Below, piece by piece: positions 3,317 to 28,164 of a stretch of 35,205 bases of DNA. Where the stretch lies: positions 1 to 35,205 of the forward strand of contig CAZXTN010000007.1 of assembly GCA_964643685.1 (NCBI GenBank), in the 5' to 3' direction. The translations under genes were made by a program, and so were the position numbers. The first letter of the stretch is position 1; each line of letters begins with the position of its first letter. This stretch comes from Candidatus Micrarchaeota archaeon. GTDB lineage: Archaea; B1Sed10-29; JAJRYS01. The notes under the pieces were generated by a model. It worked only from the letters and a program-made list of their open reading frames with translations, was not told where the DNA came from and made no database searches.

Positions 3317-6300
3317 TTATTTAATTAAATTAGCTTGTGACTGCTGGTTTGCATTCACTTGCTTGGTTTTCATTTTCTGCCTCAACTCTTCGTCGCAAAT
3401 CGGGCAGTATTCATGCTCACCTGCAATGTACCCGTGGATTGGGCAAATGCTGAACGTTGGAGTAATTGACAAGTAAGGCAAAGTGTACTTTTCAAACACT
3501 TTCTTGACAACTGTCTTAGCTGCATCCTTGTCAATTCTCTCTCCGAGGAAAGCATGGAACACTGTTCCGCCAGTGTATCTTGACTGAAGTGGGTCCTGGT
3601 TGTCAAGTATTTCAAACAAGTCGCCGCTCCAGCCGACAGGAGGTAAGCTTGAGTTAGTGTAATAAGGCTTGGCGTCATGCGCTCTGTAAGCTTGTTCATT
3701 AGCTACTATTATTTTAGGGTAATTTTTCTTGTCTATTCTAGCTAGCCTGTAAGTTGCTCCTTCAGCTGGACTTGCTTCTAAGTTGAACACATGCCCAGTT
3801 TCCTCTTGGTATTCAGCCAGCCTGTCTCTCATGAAATCCATGATTTTAATTGCAAACGCGTGGCCTTCAGGATTAGTCAAGTCAACACCCATGAAATTCA
3901 ACAATGCTTCGTTCATTCCAATCAAGCCGATTGTTGAAAAGTGGTTTTTCCAATACTCGTTGTACATGTCCTTGATTCCTCTCAAGTAAAATCTGGAGTA
4001 AGGGTACAATCCTTTTTCAGTGTAATGCTCGATGAATTTCCTTTTCAATTCAAGTGACTCCTTAGCCAAGTCCATTAAGTAAGATAATTTTTCAAAGAAT
4101 TTTTCCTCTGACTTTGACAAGTAGCCAATCTTAGGCAAGTTTATGGTGACAACACCTATGCTTCCTGTCAGAGGATTAGCTCCAAACAAGCCTCCTCCTC
4201 TTTTACGAAGCTCTCTTGTATCCAAACGCAGCCTACAGCACATGCTTCTTACGTCATCAGGGCTCATGTCACTGTTTATGAAGTTGGCAAAGTAAGGAAT
4301 GCCATATTTTCCAGTCATTTCCCAGATAGCATCCTGGTTTTCATTATCCCAGTCAAAATCCTTTGTAATGTTATAAGTTGGAATAGGGAAAGTGAATGGG
4401 CGTCCGCTTGCATCTCCTTCAAGCATCACTTCAGCAAAAGCGCGGTTAATCATGTCCATTTCATCTTGAAAACTGCCGTAAGTATCGTTAGTAATATTCC
4501 CGCCTATGATTGCCGGAAGGTTCTGCATGAACTTAGGCACTTTCAAATCCATTGTAATATTAGTGAAAGGAGTGTTTCCTGTGATGAAAACTTTGCCTTT
4601 TCTTCTTGCGATTATTGTTTCATTTTTTGTATGAGGGCACCAGATTACACCATCATAATCTACTTTTTTAATCTTCTGAATGTAAGTTTCAGAATGCTTG
4701 ATTAAGCGAAGCACAAAAATATCTTTTGTTCCTATTGTTGGTTTTCTAACAAGAGTGGTGAACCCGTATCCTGCATTCACTGCTATGATTTGCAAGGCGT
4801 CGAGAATTTCCCTGCTGGTAGTTGCAATTTTACTTTCTTCAAAACCATCTGCTTTCAAATAAGTTTCTAAAAACAGCTTGGATTGCTCTTGATTCAAGCC
4901 AAGGAGAATTGAAGGGATAAACTTAATTGTTTCCCTTGTTCCAAACCACTTGTGTACTTTCTTAGAACTTTCTGCATTCAGCCTCATTCTTCTAACAGGC
5001 TTTCCTAATCCAGTTGATTCAAATTCAGAGTAAGTTAATTTAAAATGATTCAATAATTTCTTGATTTCATTGTAGTGCTTTGAGTTTTTTTCTTTAGATT
5101 GGTAAATGGAAATCCTGTAACAACTCCTGTGATTAACTGGTTTTTCAACACTTCCTTCAGCAATAATCCATGCCATTAGCTTAATTTGTTCATCACTAAT
5201 TCCTGCTTTTTTGTTTGAATTTTCACCTGCAATTGGAATAATAAAAGGAGATTTTAGCTTGGCAACTTCTTCAATTGGTTCCAATACAAAAGAATCTGAA
5301 TTGAATAATTTTCTCACAACCCTATGTTTAGGTGAAATCAACTGATCCTGAATCCTGTTTTTTAAATTATACATCTTGCCCTTGTATCTTCTTTTAAAAA
5401 CATAAGTGACTTTCTGATCTTCAATTTTACCTGTTTTCAAGTTGAATGTTTTAATTGAACTGCCTTCATTAACCTCATCATAACTTTTCCAGCCTTCAGG
5501 AGTTAAAATTTCAGTGTCCTCAGAAACACATTGAAAACCGACACGAGTAGGCACATTCACATTGTAAATGAACTCCTGCATAGCCTGCTTTACTTCCTTG
5601 TAATCCATTTTGTCATAGGCTATGAAAGGAGCCAAGTAAGTGTCAAAATTAGAGAAAGCCTGCGCTCCAGCAGCTTCACCCTGCAAAGTATAGAAAAAAT
5701 TCACTATCTGCCCTAAAGCTGTTCTGAAATGTTTAGCTGGCTTAGAAGCTACTTTTCCAGGCACTCCCTTGAAACCGACGCTAAGCAAGTCCTGTAAGTC
5801 CCATCCAACGCAATAAGCAGCCAAGCTGCCCAAGTCATGAATGTGAAAATCACCCAGCTTATGCGCGTTTCCAATCTTGCTAGGATACAATTTATTCAGC
5901 CAATACTTGGCTACAAGCTCTGATGAAATGTGAAAATTCAATCCCTGCAGAGAGTAAGTCATGTTCGCATTTTCCTTGACTCTCCAGTCATTCTGGTTCA
6001 AATAAGCTTCCATTAAGTCAAAGTTGCCGAGCATGGAACTAAGTTCCCTCAAATCAGCGTGATTATGCCTGTAAAGAATGTAAGCCTTGGCTGTCTTAGC
6101 ATGCCCCTGTTCAATCAAGACTTTTTCAACAACATCCTGCACATCCTCTACATTAGGAATATTGTCATCATCAAAATTTTTTTCAAGTTCAGCAACGACA
6201 ATTTTAGTCAACTGCCTCGCTCTTTCAATGTCTCTGCCTCCAACAGCCCTAGCAGCTGCAAAAATGGCATTCACAATTCTTTCATCGTCAAAATCAACAA

Positions 6301-6334
6301 CAGTTCCGTCTCTTTTCTTAATTTTCGTCAACAT
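3317..6334 (-). CDS. nrdD: Anaerobic (class III) ribonucleoside-triphosphate reductase with N-terminal ATP cone and an intein; lacks the glycyl-radical loop
   Basis: IKKRDG ATP cone, HIHDL, SMCCRL finger loop, CPIH...CPIC zinc site. Start at 6334 or 6340 after GGAGGT. Confidence 0.95.
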   Translation of the reverse strand: MLTKIKKRDGTVVDFDDERIVNAIFAAARAVGGRDIERARQLTKIVVAELEKNFDDDNIPNVEDVQDVVEKVLIEQGHAKTAKAYILYRHNHADLRELSSMLGNFDLMEAYLNQNDWRVKENANMTYSLQGLNFHISSELVAKYWLNKLYPSKIGNAHKLGDFHIHDLGSLAAYCVGWDLQDLLSVGFKGVPGKVASKPAKHFRTALGQIVNFFYTLQGEAAGAQAFSNFDTYLAPFIAYDKMDYKEVKQAMQEFIYNVNVPTRVGFQCVSEDTEILTPEGWKSYDEVNEGSSIKTFNLKTGKIEDQKVTYVFKRRYKGKMYNLKNRIQDQLISPKHRVVRKLFNSDSFVLEPIEEVAKLKSPFIIPIAGENSNKKAGISDEQIKLMAWIIAEGSVEKPVNHRSCYRISIYQSKEKNSKHYNEIKKLLNHFKLTYSEFESTGLGKPVRRMRLNAESSKKVHKWFGTRETIKFIPSILLGLNQEQSKLFLETYLKADGFEESKIATTSREILDALQIIAVNAGYGFTTLVRKPTIGTKDIFVLRLIKHSETYIQKIKKVDYDGVIWCPHTKNETIIARRKGKVFITGNTPFTNITMDLKVPKFMQNLPAIIGGNITNDTYGSFQDEMDMINRAFAEVMLEGDASGRPFTFPIPTYNITKDFDWDNENQDAIWEMTGKYGIPYFANFINSDMSPDDVRSMCCRLRLDTRELRKRGGGLFGANPLTGSIGVVTINLPKIGYLSKSEEKFFEKLSYLMDLAKESLELKRKFIEHYTEKGLYPYSRFYLRGIKDMYNEYWKNHFSTIGLIGMNEALLNFMGVDLTNPEGHAFAIKIMDFMRDRLAEYQEETGHVFNLEASPAEGATYRLARIDKKNYPKIIVANEQAYRAHDAKPYYTNSSLPPVGWSGDLFEILDNQDPLQSRYTGGTVFHAFLGERIDKDAAKTVVKKVFEKYTLPYLSITPTFSICPIHGYIAGEHEYCPICDEELRQKMKTKQVNANQQSQANLIK
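4574..5530 (-). mobile_element. 319-aa intein with LAGLIDADG homing endonuclease, inside nrdD
   Basis: RVGFQ|CVSEDTEILTPEGWK ... KVFITGN|TPFTN. Cys1, block B SPKH, LAGLIDADG-like MAWIIAEGS and FLETYLKADG, terminal Asn, Thr+1. Confidence 0.93.
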
Positions 6335-6419
6335 CCTCATCCTACCTCCGCATAACAATACAAAAATGAAACAAAACCCCCCCTTGAAAAAATGAGAGTG
6401 ATATTTCAAACTCAAAAAA

Positions 6420-16321: not shown

Positions 16322-16657
16322 TCAATCCTCTTTAAACAAGGAAACAATCTCCTTAACCTTGTCATCAGTCAATTCAAACCTAGACTTCTCAAAGAAAAGC
16401 TTCACCAACTCAGGCGAAGTCGGACGAACATTAACCAAACTAACAGCAGTCTCCTCATCAACGCCCATTTCCTTAAGCTTCTCAACAAGCTTCAAAGCAG
16501 AATCAACCCTGCCCTTGCCAAACTCCTTAACATACTCCAAAGTCACTTTCTGCTCGTAACTCAACTCCTCATCCTCCTCAGCTTTCTTCTTATCCTCTAA
16601 AATCTTCCTAACTTCCTGCAAAGTCAAAAACCTTGAACCAACAACTTCAGTACTCAT
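16322..16657 (-). CDS. rpoF: RNA polymerase subunit F (Rpo4)
   Basis: LSYEQKVTLEYVKEF, A..LVNVRP pattern; synteny with rpl21e. Confidence 0.9.
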   Translation of the reverse strand: MSTEVVGSRFLTLQEVRKILEDKKKAEEDEELSYEQKVTLEYVKEFGKGRVDSALKLVEKLKEMGVDEETAVSLVNVRPTSPELVKLFFEKSRFELTDDKVKEIVSLFKED

Positions 16658-16670
16658 TCAAAAACCACCT

Positions 16671-16970
16671 TTACATTTTAACAGGACTCAAATGCGCAGG
16701 ATGAACAATAATCCTCTTCAACGCATTCATATCCCTAACTTCAACAATAAAACAAGAACCGCGTTTTCCAACAACAGTTCCAGTCGCGCCATTAAACCTC
16801 CTATGAGGCATGGCACTATGAACACTTGAATTAATCTTAACATGCACCTTCTCCCCTTCACTAAACTCCTGAAGCATCTTATTAACACTAGGCATGCCCT
16901 TATCCCTCTTATGCTTACCAGCCACATGCCTGCTCTTAGCCCTAGGGCCCTTGTGCTTTGCCTTAACCAT
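16671..16970 (-). CDS. rpl21e: 50S ribosomal protein L21e
   Basis: G.R.KSR, F.EGEKVHVKINSSVH..MPHRRFNG.TG.V.GKRG, HPAHL; GGAGG RBS. Confidence 0.96.
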   Translation of the reverse strand: MVKAKHKGPRAKSRHVAGKHKRDKGMPSVNKMLQEFSEGEKVHVKINSSVHSAMPHRRFNGATGTVVGKRGSCFIVEVRDMNALKRIIVHPAHLSPVKM

Positions 16971-17464: not shown

Positions 17465-17535
17465 CAGAATAATTAAACACTCTTTCTAAAAAGAAAGAAC
17501 TAATTTTCACAAAAAAACTTAAAGGAAGTGGTTAA

Positions 17536-18084
17536 ATGGCTAAAAAAATAGACTTCACAATCCAAAACATCGTAGCATCAGCCAACCTAAACGTAGAATT
17601 AGATTTATACGGAATAGCAAGGGAAGTTGACAACGTAGAATACGAACCAGAACAATTCCCAGGAGCAATACTAAAACTAGACAAACCAAAAACATCACTA
17701 CTACTATTCAAAAACGGAAAAGTAATCTGCACAGGAGCAAAATCAGAAAAAGACGTAGCAAAAGCAATCAAAACAGCATACCAAAACATAAAACAAAACG
17801 TCAAATCAGGAAAAGCAAAAATGGAATACACAATCGTCAATATTGTCGCTTCAGCAGCACTAAACGTCGAACTTGATTTATACGGAATAGCAAGGGAAGT
17901 TGACAACGTAGAATACGAACCAGAACAATTCCCAGGAGCAATACTAAAACTAGACAAACCAAAAACAAGCTTGTTATTATTCAAGAATGGGAAGTTGATT
18001 TGTACTGGAGCAACAAACGAAAACGACGTAAAAAAAGCAATCAACAAAGCATACAATTTAATCAAACCAAATATTAGGAAATAA
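17536..18084 (+). CDS. tbp: TATA-box binding protein
   Basis: Two TBP repeats NIVASA..L..L...YEPEQFPG...PK...LF..GK.ICTGA. Confidence 0.97.
   Translation: MAKKIDFTIQNIVASANLNVELDLYGIAREVDNVEYEPEQFPGAILKLDKPKTSLLLFKNGKVICTGAKSEKDVAKAIKTAYQNIKQNVKSGKAKMEYTIVNIVASAALNVELDLYGIAREVDNVEYEPEQFPGAILKLDKPKTSLLLFKNGKLICTGATNENDVKKAINKAYNLIKPNIRK
17602..17967 (+). repeat. 93-bp perfect direct repeat inside tbp (17602-17694 = 17875-17967)
   Basis: GATTTATACGGAATAGCAAGGGAAGTTGAC...CTAGACAAACCAAAAACA present twice, 273 bp apart. Confidence 0.97.
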
Positions 18085-18248
18085 GACAAAAGGAGAAATA
18101 ACAACAAAAGAATACAAAGAAAGAAAAAAAATACTCAACACATAAACCCCCCCTCCTTTCTTTTTTTATTTTCTTTCAAAACAAAAACAAGCAAAAACAT
18201 AAACTTCAGAGCAAACTAAAATAAACCAATAAAATTAATAATTATAAC

Positions 18249-20805: not shown

Positions 20806-20884
20806 ATCTTCTTATTTTCTATTTAGTTATTTAAAAGAATTGTTTAAACAAAGCTTTTATTAAAAAAAAGTTATAATCTTGTTG

Positions 20885-22402
20885 ATGAAAAAAGAAGAAA
20901 CGTTGAATTTAGAAGAAAGATTATGGAAAACTGCTGATAAACTAAGAAATAGTATGGATGCTGCGGAGTACAAAAACGTTGTGCTCGGACTAATTTTTTT
21001 AAAGTACATCTCAGATAAGTTTAAAATTTTACATGACAAACTTGAAAAAGAAGAAAATGCAGATCCAGAGGATCCTGATGAATACAAAGCAGAAAATGCT
21101 TTCTGGGTGCCAAAAAAAGCAAGATGGGAGTACATTCAATCAAAAGCAAAACTACCTGAAATTGGAAAAATAATAGATGAAGCAATGGATGAAATAGAAA
21201 CAAAAAATCTTTCACTAAGAGGGATATTACCAAAGGATTATAACAGGCCAACACTTGATAAAAGAAAACTCGGCGAATTAATTGATTTAATAAGTACAAT
21301 TGGATTTGCAGATGAAAAAGAAATAGACTTACTTGGAAGAGTATATGAGTACTTCTTAGGAAAATTTGCAGATGCAGAAGGAAAAAGAGGAGGACAGTTC
21401 TACACTCCAGAAAGTATAGTAAAACTCTTAGTATACATGATAAGACCATACAAAGGAAGAGTATATGATCCATGTGCCGGTTCAGGGGGAATGTTTGTAC
21501 AATCAGAAAAGTTCATAAAAGCACACCAAGGAAAAATAAAAGAGATAAGCATTTACGGACAAGAAAGCAACCCAACAACCTGGAAACTCTGTAAAATGAA
21601 CTTAGCAATAAGAGGATTAGACAACTCACAAATAAAACTAGGAGACTCATTTCATGATGACCAACACAAAGACTTAAAAGCAGATTACATCCTAGCAAAC
21701 CCTCCTTTTAATGTTTCAGATTGGGGAGCAGAACACTTACAAAATGATGTGCGATGGAAATATGGAATTCCACCAAAAGGAAACGCTAACTTTGCATGGG
21801 TACAACACTTCATCCACCACTTATCACCAAAAGGAGTAGCTGGCTTTGTACTAGCAAACGGTTCAATGAGTTCAAACACTTCAAATGAAGGAGAAATTAG
21901 AAAAAAAATAATACAAGCAGATTTAATTGACTGTATTGTAGCTTTACCTTCTCAACTATTTTATAATACAATGATTCCAGCTTGTCTCTGGTTCATACGA
22001 AGAAGCAAAAACAAAAGGAAAGGAGAAATTTTGTTTATTGACGCTCGTAACATGGGACACATGATTAATCGTCGTAACAGAGAACTAAGCAAAGAGGATA
22101 TTTTAAAAATTTCTGACACTTATCATGCTTGGAGAGGGGAAGAAACAGAACAAAAAGACTTCGGAGAATACAAGGATATTCTTGGTTTTTGTAAAAGTGC
22201 AACACTTGAAGAAGTTGAAAAACAAGGCTTTGTCTTAACCCCTGGAAGATACGTTGGAATTCCAGAGGAAGAGGAAGACGAAAAAGAATTTGAAGAAAAA
22301 ATGAAAAAACTAACCTCACAGTTAGCTGAACAAATAAAAGAAGCACAAAAACTAGACCAAGAAATAAAGAAAAACCTAAAGGCGATTGGATTTGACTTAT
22401 AA
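20885..22402 (+). CDS. hsdM: Type I restriction-modification methyltransferase subunit M (m6A)
   Basis: [36 protein letters not shown]. Confidence 0.97.
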
Positions 22403-23195
22403 CATACAAGAAAATTTGAAAGGAAAAAAGCTTATAAGAGAGCATAATTTTAAACTAGTTTATGTTGGACCAAGTTTTGAGTCAGGAATTAAAATAAATT
22501 TTTTAGTTGAAAATCTAAAGGCTATTCATGAATTAGTTCATACAATAAATGAAATAGATTCAAAAGCTAAAAAAAATAAGATTAAAGAAATAAGAGTAAT
22601 ACCAAAAAAAGGAAGCATTGAAGAAGAAATAGTGATAATATTTTCTAATCCTGAAGTTAGATCAATGATAGTCAACATTATCATAGCTCTATTTTTTTAT
22701 TTAATAGGTAGAAGAGATAATGCTAAGAACAGAAAAGAGATTAAAGAGATGAATGAAAAATTAAATGAACTTATCTCATTAAATCAACTTAAAAACATTA
22801 AAGAGTTAACAAATCCCTTAGAACAAAAAAAAGATTCCCTAAAGATTATTGAAAATAACTCTACAAAACTTGAAGTAAACTATCAAAATAAAAAATTAAT
22901 AAATAAATCAATAAAAGAAATAGAAAAAGAGATCAAGAAAGAAGAAACTGAAGTTGAATTAGAAGGATATATCTCAGCTATGGATCTAGATACAAAAAGA
23001 TTAAAGTTCCATCCAAAAAATGATAAGAAAGCATATCCATTATCCTTCACACAACCACTTAAATTAATAATCCCTCTTCTTGGAAAAGAGATAAAAGCAA
23101 AGTTACGTGTAACAAAAATTAGAAGTAGGATAATAAAATTACACTTATTAGATTATAAATTATTACAAAGGGGACTAAATGAGTTTACAGAATAA
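22386..23195 (+). CDS. Hypothetical protein inserted between hsdM and hsdS
   Basis: 269-aa ORF overlapping both neighbours; central hydrophobic helix; start uncertain (TTG). Confidence 0.7.
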
Positions 23196-24423
23196 AACTA
23201 AATTTAAAAAAACTGAAATAGGATTAATTCCAGAAGATTGGGAAGTTAAAGGATTAAACAGTTTGGGAAAAGTAAGCACGGGCAAGGGAACAAAAAAATT
23301 ACTTCTCGGTAAATATAAAATAATCGGGTCTAATGGGGTTTTAGGGTATACTAACAACTATTTGGAAAATGATAACTTAATTTTTACAGGAAGAGTCGGC
23401 ACAATTGGTTCGGTAAATTTTCTTAAAAAAGAAAGAGTTTGGTTATCAGATAACACTTTATACTTTAAGACAGAAGATTTAGGATTGTTAAAATTTATTT
23501 ATTACTCATTGAAAAGAATTGACTTTTCTTATTTAAATGTAGGTAGCACTCAACCATTAATTAAACAGTCAGATTTTAGAAGATTAAAAATAGGTATTCC
23601 AACTCACAAAACAGAAATAAATGCTATTGTTAAGATTCTTTCTGATTTGGATGCTAAGATTGAGTTGTTGCAGAAGCAGAATGAAACCTTAGAAAAAATT
23701 GGTCAGGCGTTGTTTAAGCGTTGGTTTGTTGATTTTGAATTTCTTAATGAAGAAGGCAAGCCTTACAAATCTTCAGGCGGAAAAATGGTTTATAACAAAG
23801 AATTAGGAAAAGAGATTCCGAAAGGATGGGAAGTTTCAGAAGTAGGTAAAGAATTAAAAACTATTTTAGGTGGAACTCCTAGTAAAACAAGAAAAGAATA
23901 TTGGATTAATGGAACAATTCCTTGGATTAATTCAGGTGCATTAAATGCTTTTCCGGTTATGAATGCTTCACAATACATTACAAAAGAAGGGTTAAAAAAT
24001 TCTGCTGCAAAGCTTATGCCAAGAGGAACTATTGTTTTACCTTTTGTAATCTCTATTGGAAAAAAAGTGAATATTAGTATATTAGGTATAGACTCATCAG
24101 GAAATCAATCTGTTTTAGGGATATTAGAAAATAAGTTATTTTCATCAGCTTTTATTTACTATTGGATACAACATAAAAAACAGAAATTATACTTATCTGC
24201 AACAGGAGGAGCACAACAACACATTAACAAAAAAGAAGTTGATTCATTAGAATTATTAATTCCTTCAAAACAAGTTTTAATTGAATTTAATAATATCTCA
24301 ATGAAATTAATAAAAAAAATAATTTCAAATGCTGAACAAATTCAATCTCTTGAACAAATTCGTGATTCACTACTTCCAAAATTAATGACAGGAAAAATAA
24401 GGGTAAATTATGAAAAAGATTAA
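23179..24423 (+). CDS. hsdS: Type I restriction-modification specificity subunit S
   Basis: FKKTEIGLIPEDW / EIPKGW repeats, two TRDs, LDAKIELL conserved helix, RDSLLPKLMTGKIRV. Confidence 0.95.
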   Translation: MSLQNKTKFKKTEIGLIPEDWEVKGLNSLGKVSTGKGTKKLLLGKYKIIGSNGVLGYTNNYLENDNLIFTGRVGTIGSVNFLKKERVWLSDNTLYFKTEDLGLLKFIYYSLKRIDFSYLNVGSTQPLIKQSDFRRLKIGIPTHKTEINAIVKILSDLDAKIELLQKQNETLEKIGQALFKRWFVDFEFLNEEGKPYKSSGGKMVYNKELGKEIPKGWEVSEVGKELKTILGGTPSKTRKEYWINGTIPWINSGALNAFPVMNASQYITKEGLKNSAAKLMPRGTIVLPFVISIGKKVNISILGIDSSGNQSVLGILENKLFSSAFIYYWIQHKKQKLYLSATGGAQQHINKKEVDSLELLIPSKQVLIEFNNISMKLIKKIISNAEQIQSLEQIRDSLLPKLMTGKIRVNYEKD

Positions 24424-25054
24424 AGAGTTGATTTATGAAAAAGAGAGTTTTGGGGAGTTAAAACTACTTCTTATTCAATTGGAGAAATTTATAAAAGAGG
24501 ATAATTATAACGCTTCAATTGAAACTTCAAAGGCAGTTATTGAGTCCATTTGTAAAACAATATTAAAACAACTTAATATAAATATTCAAAAAAATATAAA
24601 GTTTCCAAAATTAGTTAAAATCGTTTTAAATAACTCCCCTTTTTTAAAAGAACTTGAAAAAGAGGATAAAGAGAGCACAAAAAAAATAATCGGTTCTATT
24701 TTAACACTTTCAAACTCAATCGCAAATCTAAGAAATAATTACAATTTTATTTCTCATGGACAAGGACCATCATTTAAATTATCAAATAAAAGAATAAGTG
24801 AATTATGCCTTCAATCAACTGAATTAATTGGCTCTTTTTTATTAGATATTCATTTAAACTATACCCCACCCTCTTATTATAATGAAGTTAGATATGAAGA
24901 TCATGAAGATTTTAACAGATGGTTTGATGAACAAAATAGCAATTTAAAAATTGGAAAATATGAGTTTTTACCTAGTAAGGTTTTATATACAGATATCGAA
25001 TTTTATAAACAAGAGTTACAATCTTTTAAAGAAAAGGGAGATTTTGTAATATGA
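24410..25054 (+). CDS. Abortive-infection (Abi_C, HEPN-related) family protein
   Basis: [13 protein letters not shown] and [14 protein letters not shown] motifs; embedded in the hsd operon. Confidence 0.75.
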
Positions 25055-28000
25055 CTAGTTTTGTAGTTGAGCAGGATATTGAAGATGCTGTTTTGGATAT
25101 TTTTCAAAGTGATTTGGGTTATTCTTATTATTTTGGTCCTGATATTTCACCTGATTCTGAAAATGCTTTAAGAAAAAGTTGGAGCGAGGTTATTTTAGAA
25201 TGGGAATTAAAAGAAGCAATTGAAAAGCTAAACCCTCAGTTAACAAGTGAAGTAATAGAAGAGGTAATTAAAAAAGTAAAAAGAATACCTTCACAAAATT
25301 TAATTGAAAACAATAAACACTTTCACAAGTTATTAGTAGAAGGAGTACCAATTTCTTATAGAAACAATGAAGGAAGAGTAGTTCATGATACTGCTAAATT
25401 GATAAGTGAGGATGTTGAAAAAAATAAGTTTACTGTAATTAATCAGTTTACCATTATTGAAAATGAAAAAAATAGGAGACCAGATTTAATTGTTTTTTTA
25501 AATGGTTTGCCAATAGCTGTTATTGAATTAAAAAACCCAATTAAAGAAAAAGCAAGTTTAACATCTGCTTATAAACAATTAGAAGTGTATAAAGAAGAGA
25601 TTTCAAGCTTGTTTAATTATAATGAGTTTTTAGTTATTTCAGATGGAACAAGTGCTAGGATTGGCACTATTACTTCTTCAAAAGAATGGTTTTTACCATG
25701 GAAGAGTTCAGAGGGTAAGACAATTGCTTCAAAAAAATTACCTCAACTTCCAGTGTTACTAGAAGGGGTTTTTAAGAAGAGCACTTTAATTGACTTGATT
25801 AAGTATTTTGTTGCTTTCAGTACTTCAGATAAAAAGGTTAGAAAGATTTTAGCTGGTTATCATCAGTATTATGCTACTAATAAAGCTATTAAGAGAACAA
25901 TTGAAGCTATTGGTAAGAGTAAAAAAGCAGGGGTTATTTGGCATACGCAGGGTTCTGGTAAATCTTTTACTCTTGCTTTTTATACTGGTAAATTACAACA
26001 AGAAGAAAAGTTAAAAAACCCGACTGTTGTTGTTTTAACTGATAGGAATGATTTAGATGACCAGTTATTTAATACTTTTTCTTCAATTGATTGTTTAAGA
26101 GAACCACCTGTACAAGCTAATTCAAAAGAGGAGCTAAAACAATTGCTTAAAAATCGCCCTTCTGGGGGGATTATTTTTGCGACTATTCAGAAGTTTGGAA
26201 CTGATGAAGGAAGTTTTGAGTTACTTTCTGATAGGAGTAATATTATTGTTGCTGCGGATGAAGCGCATAGGAGCCATTATGGTTTTAAAGCAAAAGTGGA
26301 TCAGAAAACAGGGGAGGTTAAGTATGGTTTTGCTAAGTACTTGAGGGATGCTTTACCTAATGCTACTTTTATTGGTTTTACTGGTACCCCAATTGATTTA
26401 AGTGATAGATCAACTCGTCTTATTTTTGGTGATTATATTGATGTTTATGATATTGAACAGTCAATTGAAGATGGTAGGACTGTTAAGATTTTTTATGAGT
26501 CAAGGCTTGCTAAGATTGGTTTAAATGAGAAGGAAATGGAGAAGTTAGATGAAGAACTTGAAGAAGTAACTGAAACAGAAGAGGAGGAAACAAAAGAAGA
26601 ATTGAAGTCGAAGTGGTCAAAGCTTGAGAAAATTGTTGGTTCTGATGAAAGATTAGAATTAATTGCTAAGGATTTAGTTAAGCATTTTGAAGAGAGACAA
26701 GAGGCAATGAATGGAAAAGCGATGTTTGTTGGGATGTCAAGAAGAATTTGTATTGAATTATATGAAAAGATTAAGAAGTTGAGACCTGAGTGGGTTAATG
26801 AAGAAGATGATTCAAAAGGTTTAATGAAGGTTGTTATTACTGGTTCTGCTGCTGATGGTAAAGAATGGCAGAAGCACATTAGAGATAAGAGAAGAAGGAG
26901 AGAATTAGGTGAACTTTTTAAGGATCCTTCTTCTGAGTTTAAGTTAGCTATTGTTAGGGATATGTGGCTTACTGGTTTTGATGTTCCTTCTTTGAATACT
27001 CTTTATGTTGATAAGCCTATGAAGGGACATGGTTTAATGCAGGCAATTGCTAGAGTTAATAGAGTTTATAAAGATAAACAAGGTGGTTTGATTGTTGATT
27101 ATATTGGAATTGCACCTGATTTGAAAACTGCTTTAGCAATTTACAGTAAAAGTAATGGTAGAGGCAGGTTAGTTGTTAATCAGGAAGAGGCTATTTCTGT
27201 TTTACTTGAAAAGTATGAAGTTGTAAGTCAAATGTTCCATGGTTTTAATTATAAAAAGTTCTTTGAAGGTTCTCCTAGAGAAAAAATGGAGATTATTCCT
27301 GAAGCTATAGATTTTATTTTGAGTAAAAAAGAGGGTAAGAAGAGGTTTATTAGGGAAGTTACTGCTTTGACTCGTGCTTATTCACTAGCAGTTCCTAGTA
27401 AAGAAGCTAGTGAAATAAGGGAGGATATTGGTTTTTTCCAAGCTATAAAAACAGCTATTATTAAAACAACTGAGGTTGAAAAGGAGGGAAAATCAGTTGA
27501 AGAAATGGATACTATTATGAAGCAACTTGTTTCAAAAGCAATAACAGGTGTTGGAGTTATTGATGTTTTTAAGTTTGCTGGGCTTGAAAAACCAGATCTT
27601 TCAATTCTTTCAGATGAATTTTTAGAAGAAGTTCAAAATGTAAAATACAAAAACTTAACTTTTGAAACACTCAGAAAGTTACTGAATGATGAAATTAAAG
27701 TGAGATTTAGAAAGAATAAAGTGAAGAGAGATAAGTTTTCTGAATTAATTAAAAAAGCTGTTTTGAAATATGAAAATAGAAATATTGATTCAGCAATGGT
27801 GATAAAAGAACTTGTTGAAATAGCTCATAAAATAAAAGAAGAAAAGAGCAAAGGAGAAGAGTTAGGTTTATCAGAAGAAGAGGAAGCATTTTATGATGCT
27901 CTTGCTAACAATGAATCAGCAAAAGAAATTTTAGGAGAGAGTATTTTGATTATGCTTGCTAGGGAAATTTCAAAAACAATAAGAGAAAATGCAACAATTG

Positions 28001-28164
28001 ATTGGACTTTACGAGAAAATGTACAAGCAAAACTAAGGGTGATGGTAAAAAGACTCTTAAAAAAATATGGCTACCCCCCAGACAAAAGAAAAATGGCGGT
28101 GGAGCTTGTTTTAAAACAAGCAGAAGAACAAGCAAAAGAAGAATCAGTTAGTAAAATGAACTAA
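25051..28164 (+). CDS. hsdR: Type I restriction endonuclease subunit R
   Basis: [56 protein letters not shown]. Confidence 0.97.

Follow-up and report, generated by a model that had tools for sequence, protein, structure and literature searches.

A TATA-binding protein gene of a Micrarchaeota archaeon with near-identical, probably recombining repeats, and its single-repeat relatives

The stretch of DNA analysed here (the window: 35,205 nt of contig CAZXTN010000007.1, Candidatus Micrarchaeota archaeon, assembly GCA_964643685.1) carries, at 17536..18084 on the forward strand, a gene for a TATA-binding protein (TBP) whose two halves are nearly alike. The gene is an ATG-initiated open reading frame (ORF) of 182 codons plus a stop. 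Its 182-aa product contains two Pfam TBP domains (PF00352, E 8.4e-61, 202 bits for a cut-off of 22.9) and is the sole TBP match across the genome of the window (695 kb in 12 contigs, 92% complete). An AlphaFold2 model, built with 38 relatives as input, has a mean predicted local distance difference test score (pLDDT) of 95.4 and a predicted template modelling score (pTM) of 0.86; it exhibits the saddle order S1-H1-S2-S3-S4-S5-H2 twice. The top 44 PDB matches of a structure search with this model are all TBPs, with template modelling (TM) scores of 0.85-0.93. The structure 1mp9 from S. acidocaldarius (TM 0.90) is also the nearest solved chain by sequence (E 1.4e-43), with 2z8u from M. jannaschii at E 2.3e-40. 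In TBPs, two phenylalanines per repeat and an acidic stirrup motif have roles in DNA kinking and in contact with the transcription factor TFB; F41, F58, F132 and F149, together with the segments E35-G43 and E126-G134, are invariant in the 38 sequences of alignment A2. The genome also encodes one TFB, a 352-aa ORF with two TFIIB cyclin repeats (93 and 70 bits), as well as RadA (301 bits) and a RadB-like ORF (93 bits), components of a homologous recombination machinery. Judged by family membership, the product is predicted to be the single, functional two-repeat TBP of the cell. A 191-aa ORF of the opposite strand that overlaps the gene (17532-18107) is taken to be a mechanical by-product. The segment 17434-17467, located 70-100 nt upstream of the start codon, is A+T-rich and partly palindromic with two TTTATAAA-like boxes, and is a candidate promoter region.

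The best internal offset of the protein is 91 aa (273 nt), at which 70 of 91 residues are identical. It divides the gene into repeat 1 (residues 1-91, 17536..17808, Pfam stretch 6-87) and repeat 2 (residues 92-182, 17809..18081, likewise supported by Pfam), both on the forward strand. An independent repeat finding aligns 17544-17798 with 17817-18071 at 81% across 255 nt. The preliminary description of the locus, made from the sequence alone, had counted 69/86 identical residues, which is the same alignment with its ends trimmed. The 45-residue identical run and the 93-bp stretch identical at synonymous sites that it had reported are both recovered by self-comparison of the gene. Residues 18-62 (17587..17721) equal residues 109-153 (17860..17994) without a break, and the longest exact DNA run between the repeats measures 93 nt, 17602..17694 against 17875..17967. 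Copy 1 of this tract, DLYGIAREVDNVEYEPEQFPGAILKLDKPKT, corresponds to codons 23-53 and, by the secondary structure of the model, to helix 1, the stirrup and strands 3-4. Inside the tract all 31 same-residue codon pairs are identical, against 19 of 39 outside it (Fisher p 4.6e-7). Many codons differ in those parts of the 45-residue run that extend beyond the 93 nt, and the adjoining peptide TSLLLFKNGK is the same in the two repeats and written with different codons. The repeats differ at 64 of 273 positions; in 100,000 random placements of these differences a 93-nt run never arose, and a permutation of synonymous codon states gives P about 1e-5 for the tract. Residue differences between the halves are limited to strand 1, helix 2 and the linker, and in the predicted structure helix 1, the stirrup and strands 3-4, which the tract encodes, are the same on both sides. 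The motif EYEPEQFPG is present in each half. The shorter EYEPEQFP had been pointed out in both stirrups; it is indeed there, but this is not special, EPEQFPG occurring in both halves of 9 of 20 unrelated archaeal TBPs.

Such similarity is rare among archaea. The repeats of 20 TBPs from other phyla are 33-65% identical at the protein level, with longest exact DNA runs of 5-54 nt. In 166 distinct two-repeat genes, mostly from DPANN-type genomes and metagenomes, the median repeat identity is 55% for protein and 62% for DNA, and exact runs of at least 60 nt are found in six: the window gene, those of its relatives G001, G004, G011 and G040, and one Micrarchaeia record. The view that the halves of a TBP are usually far more diverged thus holds for other phyla but not for the clade of the window, where near-identity is the rule and not a peculiarity of this one gene. 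On sequence comparison the window gene is extreme among archaea and typical within its own small clade.

Concerted evolution by gene conversion between duplicated sequences is a general phenomenon, and several features of the family bear its marks. Each two-repeat relative has an exact tract of its own (91 nt in G001, 98 in G004, 78 in G011, 95 in G040) with its own ends, which in columns of the codon alignment are 15-44 in G001, 16-47 in G004, 23-53 in the window, 33-63 in G040 and about 36-75 in G011. The tract codons are species-specific, for instance GAT AAT GTT GAG TAT GAG CCT GAG CAG in G004 and GAC AAC GTA GAA TAC GAA CCA GAA CAA in the window. Between G001 and G004 synonymous sites are saturated (proportion of synonymous differences, pS, 0.85-0.90), and the two tract copies within each of these genes show no difference. 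In a DNA tree of the central 135 nt, the halves pair by gene in G004 (98/97), G011 (100/98), G040 (97/87) and G001 (94/83), the two halves of the window gene are mutual nearest rows, and positional clades are rejected (approximately unbiased, AU, test; p 0.0005-0.005). This same-gene clustering, clear for the four relatives, is what the preliminary description had expected of N-half and C-half trees under conversion. In the protein tree of the flanks (43 columns), by contrast, the N half of G001 groups with that of G004 (97/94) and the C half with the C half (87/85). Positional clades are not rejected there. A constraint that joins the halves of one gene lowers the log-likelihood by 11-20 units; it is rejected for G004 (p 0.017), with p 0.061 for the window genome, G000, and 0.12 for G001. 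The two-repeat state is therefore older than the genera of G001 and G004. Near-identity might also have been routine in a clade whose halves cluster by position; it is routine here, but only the flanks follow position while the central parts follow the gene. A smaller instance is the peptide KLDKPK, common to both window halves, which in the 93%-identical relative P0002 reads KLTKPK in one half and KLAKPK in the other. Silent-site identity within the tract, tracts particular to each lineage, conflicting trees for centre and flanks, and a strain variant described below bear out the earlier idea of recent or ongoing conversion, and recent, repeated gene conversion between the halves of the window TBP is well supported. 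We consider it highly probable that the window encodes a two-repeat TBP whose repeats recombine, conversion overwriting their centre and crossover yielding genes with one or three repeats.

The link to single-repeat genes is best seen in G003, a genome of the same family and the same gene order as the window, which carries a single-repeat gene on a 20.9-kb contig. Topoisomerase VI B lies about 8 kb upstream of TBP in G000, G001 and G003 alike. Compared with the closely related two-repeat protein P0010, the 96-aa TBP of G003 agrees in 86 of 91 columns if taken as a chimera that begins as repeat 1 and finishes as repeat 2; repeat 1 throughout gives 76 and repeat 2 throughout 82. The chimera is clear only against this closer relative; with the window halves the right flank is ambiguous (17/29 vs 19/29). 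A search downstream of the G003 gene at E up to 10 found no remnant of a second repeat. The G003 protein has the sequence expected of a product of recombination within the shared tract that deletes one unit. Two further pairs fit a chimera at every column: P0121 against P0002 (91/91; 77 and 82 otherwise) and P0194 against P0078 (91/91; 72 and 73 otherwise). P0129 equals the C half of the G001 protein (90/90); it is possibly a cut ORF and is not counted.

Single-repeat genes are widespread. In a search of 60 related genomes, most of those belonging to the order and phylum of the window match only half of the query. The fetched loci comprise 24 open frames of 88-216 codons from stop to stop, each with one TBP domain and ending right after it, and no second TBP domain was found within 1.5 kb of them. 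In the phylum of the window, which is small and DPANN-type, 14 of 20 genomes of at least 85% completeness have single-repeat matches only, to genes for proteins of about 90 aa, and four have two repeats (G000, G001, G004, G011). Of the remaining two, G023 combines single-repeat genes with a distant (29%) match of two-repeat length, and the gene of G007 is cut by contig ends. A Pfam search of five single-repeat genomes at least 91% complete returned in every case a single strong hit, to one domain, with no further canonical repeat. These single-repeat TBPs are 60-80% identical to the window halves and are the only TBP-family match in their genomes; each of five genomes checked (G001, G003, G009, G010, G018) has one normal TFB. 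The phylum of G040 shows the same mixture: its 60 good genomes (a count that leaves out one unpublished genome) comprise 20 with two repeats, 38 with single-repeat matches only and 2 without a match at E <=1e-15. Four one-contig genomes are among the 38, and the closed genomes G075, G092, G097 and G101 have single-repeat matches only. A protein collection adds 773 clusters of 30-99 aa matching at E <=0.001. Of the 120 short clusters listed, 116 start with M and contain one domain, many of them on long contigs, and the NCBI label of the half-TBPs listed is mostly 'hypothetical protein'.

Single-repeat genes are under strong purifying selection. Twenty-four columns are invariant in 44 sequences, and the proportion of nonsynonymous differences (pN) is 0.035-0.18 against pS of 0.40-0.86, with a ratio of nonsynonymous to synonymous rates (dN/dS) of 0.06-0.08 where measurable. 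Their neighbourhood also corresponds to that of the two-repeat genes. In the window, RpoF (Rpb4-like, 16322-16657) and ribosomal protein L21e (16671-16970), identified by Pfam, occupy 16322..16970 on the reverse strand, divergent from TBP. By tblastn synteny this pair accompanies the two-repeat genes of the window, G001 and G040, and also the single-repeat genes of 13-15 genomes (G003, G005, G009, G013, G018, G019, G020, G022, G023, G024, G025, G026, G027). Single-repeat genes thus occupy the ancestral TBP neighbourhood. At the other extreme, at least five of the 120 near-length hits listed have three repeats (P0008, P0033, P0040, P0061 and P0101; 272-289 aa). They lie on contigs of 1-2.6 kb and are either real expansions or assembly errors; P0101 consists of two N-type units that are nearly identical, with a C-type unit behind them. 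The forecast that recombination across the repeat could give half-length or 1.5-length alleles thus finds counterparts in the single-repeat genes that are the sole TBP of most relatives, in the G003 chimera and in these unverified three-repeat proteins.

Some observations on the TBP genes of other genomes were made in passing. Many single-repeat genomes, including two closed ones, possess two distinct single-repeat paralogs at distant places (loci L233-L236 and L239-L240 in G075, G092 and G082; L034/L035, L027/L044, L048/L049 and L042/L050), whose products could form heterodimers or alternative homodimers. An ancient gene split into separate N and C genes was considered for the paralogs of family f39 (G075, G082, G092) and for types a and b of the phylum of the window, and was rejected on N/C log-odds scores of about -10 to +25, against +12 to +67 and -20 to -75 in the controls. 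In G011 a 726-codon frame (G011:C8:9526-10692) contains two further TBP-like matches, each spanning both repeats and 27-30% identical to the window TBP; it would correspond to four TBP-like domains in one protein. Finally, the archaeal two-repeat TBP contigs L080, L083, L095 and L105 stand in bins titled bacteria or Thaumarchaeota (Falkowbacteria, Chloroflexi/Chloroflexota) and are probably mis-binned.

The history of the repeats was examined with a log-odds score trained on 20 unrelated TBPs, which makes no error in leave-one-out trials. Old N repeats score +12 to +67 and old C repeats -20 to -75. Every half in the phylum of the window, from two-repeat and single-repeat genes alike, lies at about -10 to +24, and the C halves of G000, G001, G004 and G011 score +5 to +13. 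A flank difference above 10 is kept in 119 of 160 other DPANN-type two-repeat genes. The C-repeat signature being gone from all halves of this phylum and kept in most other DPANN-type genes, the present symmetry is secondary, and a whole repeat was replaced at some time. The symmetry is accordingly not retained from the ancestral symmetric TBP, of which the preliminary description had seen a living model in the gene. How the replacement came about is the point on which an alternative survives best. The two-repeat genes of the family could have been re-duplicated from a single-repeat ancestor, the single-repeat form being ancestral in the phylum. This alternative concerns history only and is compatible with ongoing conversion. 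The 14 single-repeat-only genomes against 4 with two repeats, the absence of the ancient N/C signal from every half and the grouping of the G011 halves even on the flanks (97/91) speak for it. The only direction actually seen within the family is nevertheless from two repeats to one, the G003 gene being an N-start/C-end chimera of a P0010-like gene. A single clade of all family halves is disfavoured (AU p 0.027), a weak result obtained on 43 columns for a group named after the tree had been seen. Moreover, the repeats of P0014 are identical over about 66 residues, a conversion tract reaching nearly to the repeat end, so that a whole repeat could be homogenised without a single-repeat stage. 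Other markers contribute little: the topoisomerase VI B tree of the family resolves one of 8 inner branches (G001+G004 only), and NrdD, with paralogs and an insert, is unusable. The species tree being poorly resolved, the nesting of G003 among two-repeat genomes rests on the TBP sequence. On this balance we regard re-duplication as possible, at somewhat longer odds than a history without it.

A young tandem duplication, the repeats being alike through little elapsed time and protein constraint with no conversion, is quite unlikely. A whole-repeat event after the original TBP duplication did happen, as the loss of the ancient C-repeat signature from all halves of the phylum indicates. One age, however, cannot give no changed codon of 31 in the tract and 20 changed of 39 beside it. 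In G001 and G004 the flanks sort by position, although every gene has an exact tract that is private to it. We give slightly less credit still to selection that acts directly on the nucleotides, through codon use, mRNA structure or a DNA site inside the gene, in place of copying. Shorter exact runs of 20-54 nt in many other archaeal TBPs are also centred on EYEPEQFPG, and codon bias could contribute to them, but the sequence and boundaries of the tract differ by species with no common nucleotide motif kept, and the identical residues TSLLLFKNGK beside the tract use different codons.

The assembly of the repeat was checked against k-mer contigs of four sequencing runs, of which X3 and X4 lack cover over part of repeat 2. 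In X1 and X2, which come from two studies, the left flank and copy 1 are joined on one contig, copy 2 and the right flank on another, and a 255-nt contig reaches from copy 1 across the unique middle into copy 2; the tract pieces have about twice the depth of the flanks. No repeat-skipping joint is listed among the k-mer contigs, so that no deletion allele was seen in the four runs. The middle contig of X1 and X2 represents a strain variant: it has five clustered silent differences at 17872-17889, and with them the tract would be 78 nt long, copy 2 being identical to copy 1 from 17890 only. At three of the five positions the window copy 2 has the letter of copy 1. Two contig ends of G007 (L244 and L245, on C7 and C4) share the TBP gene between them and overlap in the tract region; the pieces resemble P0014, and the internal repeat probably broke the assembly. 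Although the tract interrupts the k-mer contigs in each of the four runs and the G007 gene is split, a short-read assembly artefact hiding a one-repeat gene or less similar repeats is the least credible explanation of all, given the bridging and flanking contigs and doubled depth in X1 and X2, the same design with different sequences in four independently assembled relatives, and a tract of 93 nt, which is below common read lengths.

Some observations nevertheless weigh against recombining repeats as the explanation. For the window itself the flank test is borderline (p 0.061) and the central halves stand in an unresolved fork. Codon bias common within a genome draws DNA trees toward clustering by gene. 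The contigs that bear P0002/P0121 and P0078/P0194 measure 0.7-4.3 kb, and these pairs could reflect repeat collapse by the assembler. Two of the five strain differences (17872 and 17874) are unlike copy 1 too, so the variant is not a clean single conversion event. Since k-mer contigs break at the tract, the repeat number rests on the assembler, on the roughly doubled tract depth and on the architecture of the relatives.

Two other features of the window deserve mention. On the reverse strand, 3317-6415 encodes the anaerobic ribonucleotide reductase NrdD (1031 aa), with an insert of ~320 aa (residues 295-613; about 4574-5530). Relatives lack the insert, and their matches to residues 25-294 and 614-1014 abut. 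The insert gives weak hits to LAGLIDADG (E 2.7e-4) and intein-splicing (E 3.5e-3) profiles, both below the Pfam cut-offs, and probably represents an intein that contains a homing endonuclease. A type I restriction-modification system occupies 20879-28164 on the forward strand, HsdM (20879-22402) and HsdR (25051-28164) being identified by Pfam; the ORFs between them (22386-24423) are presumably specificity subunits.

We infer the following mechanism for the repeats. Non-crossover recombination between the direct repeats, 273 nt apart, would repeatedly overwrite the centre of one with the other. The region around EYEPEQFPG, where the protein is most constrained, would keep the most similar DNA and so remain best suited to further exchanges; strand 1, helix 2 and the linker, lying farther out, would escape conversion and diverge. 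A crossover or slippage would delete exactly one unit and leave a gene that opens as repeat 1 and closes as repeat 2, and an unequal exchange would add a unit, giving three repeats. Single-repeat genes appear to be the only TBP in many lineages of at least two DPANN-type phyla, and their products presumably rebuild the saddle as homodimers. With both stirrups identical and TFB ordinary and asymmetric, TFB may bind on either side, and the direction of transcription would therefore come from TFB reading the TFB recognition element (BRE). We lean towards the view that a large share of DPANN-type archaea run all transcription on a homodimeric half-TBP, the gene shifting among one, two and three repeats by way of a self-renewing tract.

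If this is true, the path from homodimer through duplication and fusion to asymmetry is replayed in living organisms, and the window gene is a two-repeat stage caught in mid-process. TBP is the textbook pseudo-symmetric protein, and its homodimeric ancestor has so far only been deduced. Natural TBPs exist whose TFB-facing surfaces are identical on both sides, natural single-repeat TBPs stand beside a normal TFB as apparently the sole TBP of their genome, and the DNA mechanism that joins the two forms would be visible. Directional initiation by a symmetric TBP, the purpose of the ordinary asymmetry and the ease of reversion to a homodimer become open to test. Annotation pipelines miss many half-TBPs under the label 'hypothetical protein'. 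The use of inter-repeat distance as an evolutionary clock (Adachi 2016) would be invalid wherever conversion occurs.

Compared with concerted evolution in general, the family exhibits the usual features, namely sharp-edged tracts that include silent sites, genome-wise trees, and deletion or expansion of repeat units. It differs in that the exchange would take place within a single general transcription factor, essential and pseudo-symmetric, between its two halves; conversion would therefore make the protein surface symmetric, and deletion would yield a would-be homodimer. Our literature search, with subscription journals and supplements outside its coverage, returned no account of conversion inside a TBP gene, nor of a half-TBP serving a genome as its only TBP. 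With the solved archaeal TBPs (1mp9, 2z8u, P. woesei 1pcz/1ais) the window protein shares family, fold, two TBP domains, the stirrup EPEQFPG and two phenylalanines per repeat. The accessible part of Adachi et al. (2016, PMC4910066) gives a nucleotide identity between repeats of 39.9-61.5% in 34 species, with M. jannaschii the most symmetric of them and a clean separation of N and C repeats into two clades. Against the archaeal TBPs of that account, the window repeats are 77-81% identical and share an exact tract of 93 nt, and in the central parts the tree follows the gene. The nearest account that the literature search returned, in the available text of Brindefalk et al. (2013, PMC3597702), is of monopartite TBP-domain proteins, which comprise halobacterial TbpA and a euryarchaeal group. 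They sit beside a full-length TBP, TbpA is not essential, and it is already argued there that a lone TBP domain can be functional. The genes of the relatives resemble those proteins, as there described, in having a single TBP domain as the whole protein, and differ from them in being the only TBP and not the companion of a full one; the window gene, with two domains, falls outside that group. Polarity set by TFB and BRE is the standard archaeal model according to the accessible part of a review (PMC7289017, citing Bell 1999). It was established with ordinary, moderately asymmetric TBPs; by the same principle a symmetric TBP with two identical stirrups, or a true homodimer, could still support directional transcription.
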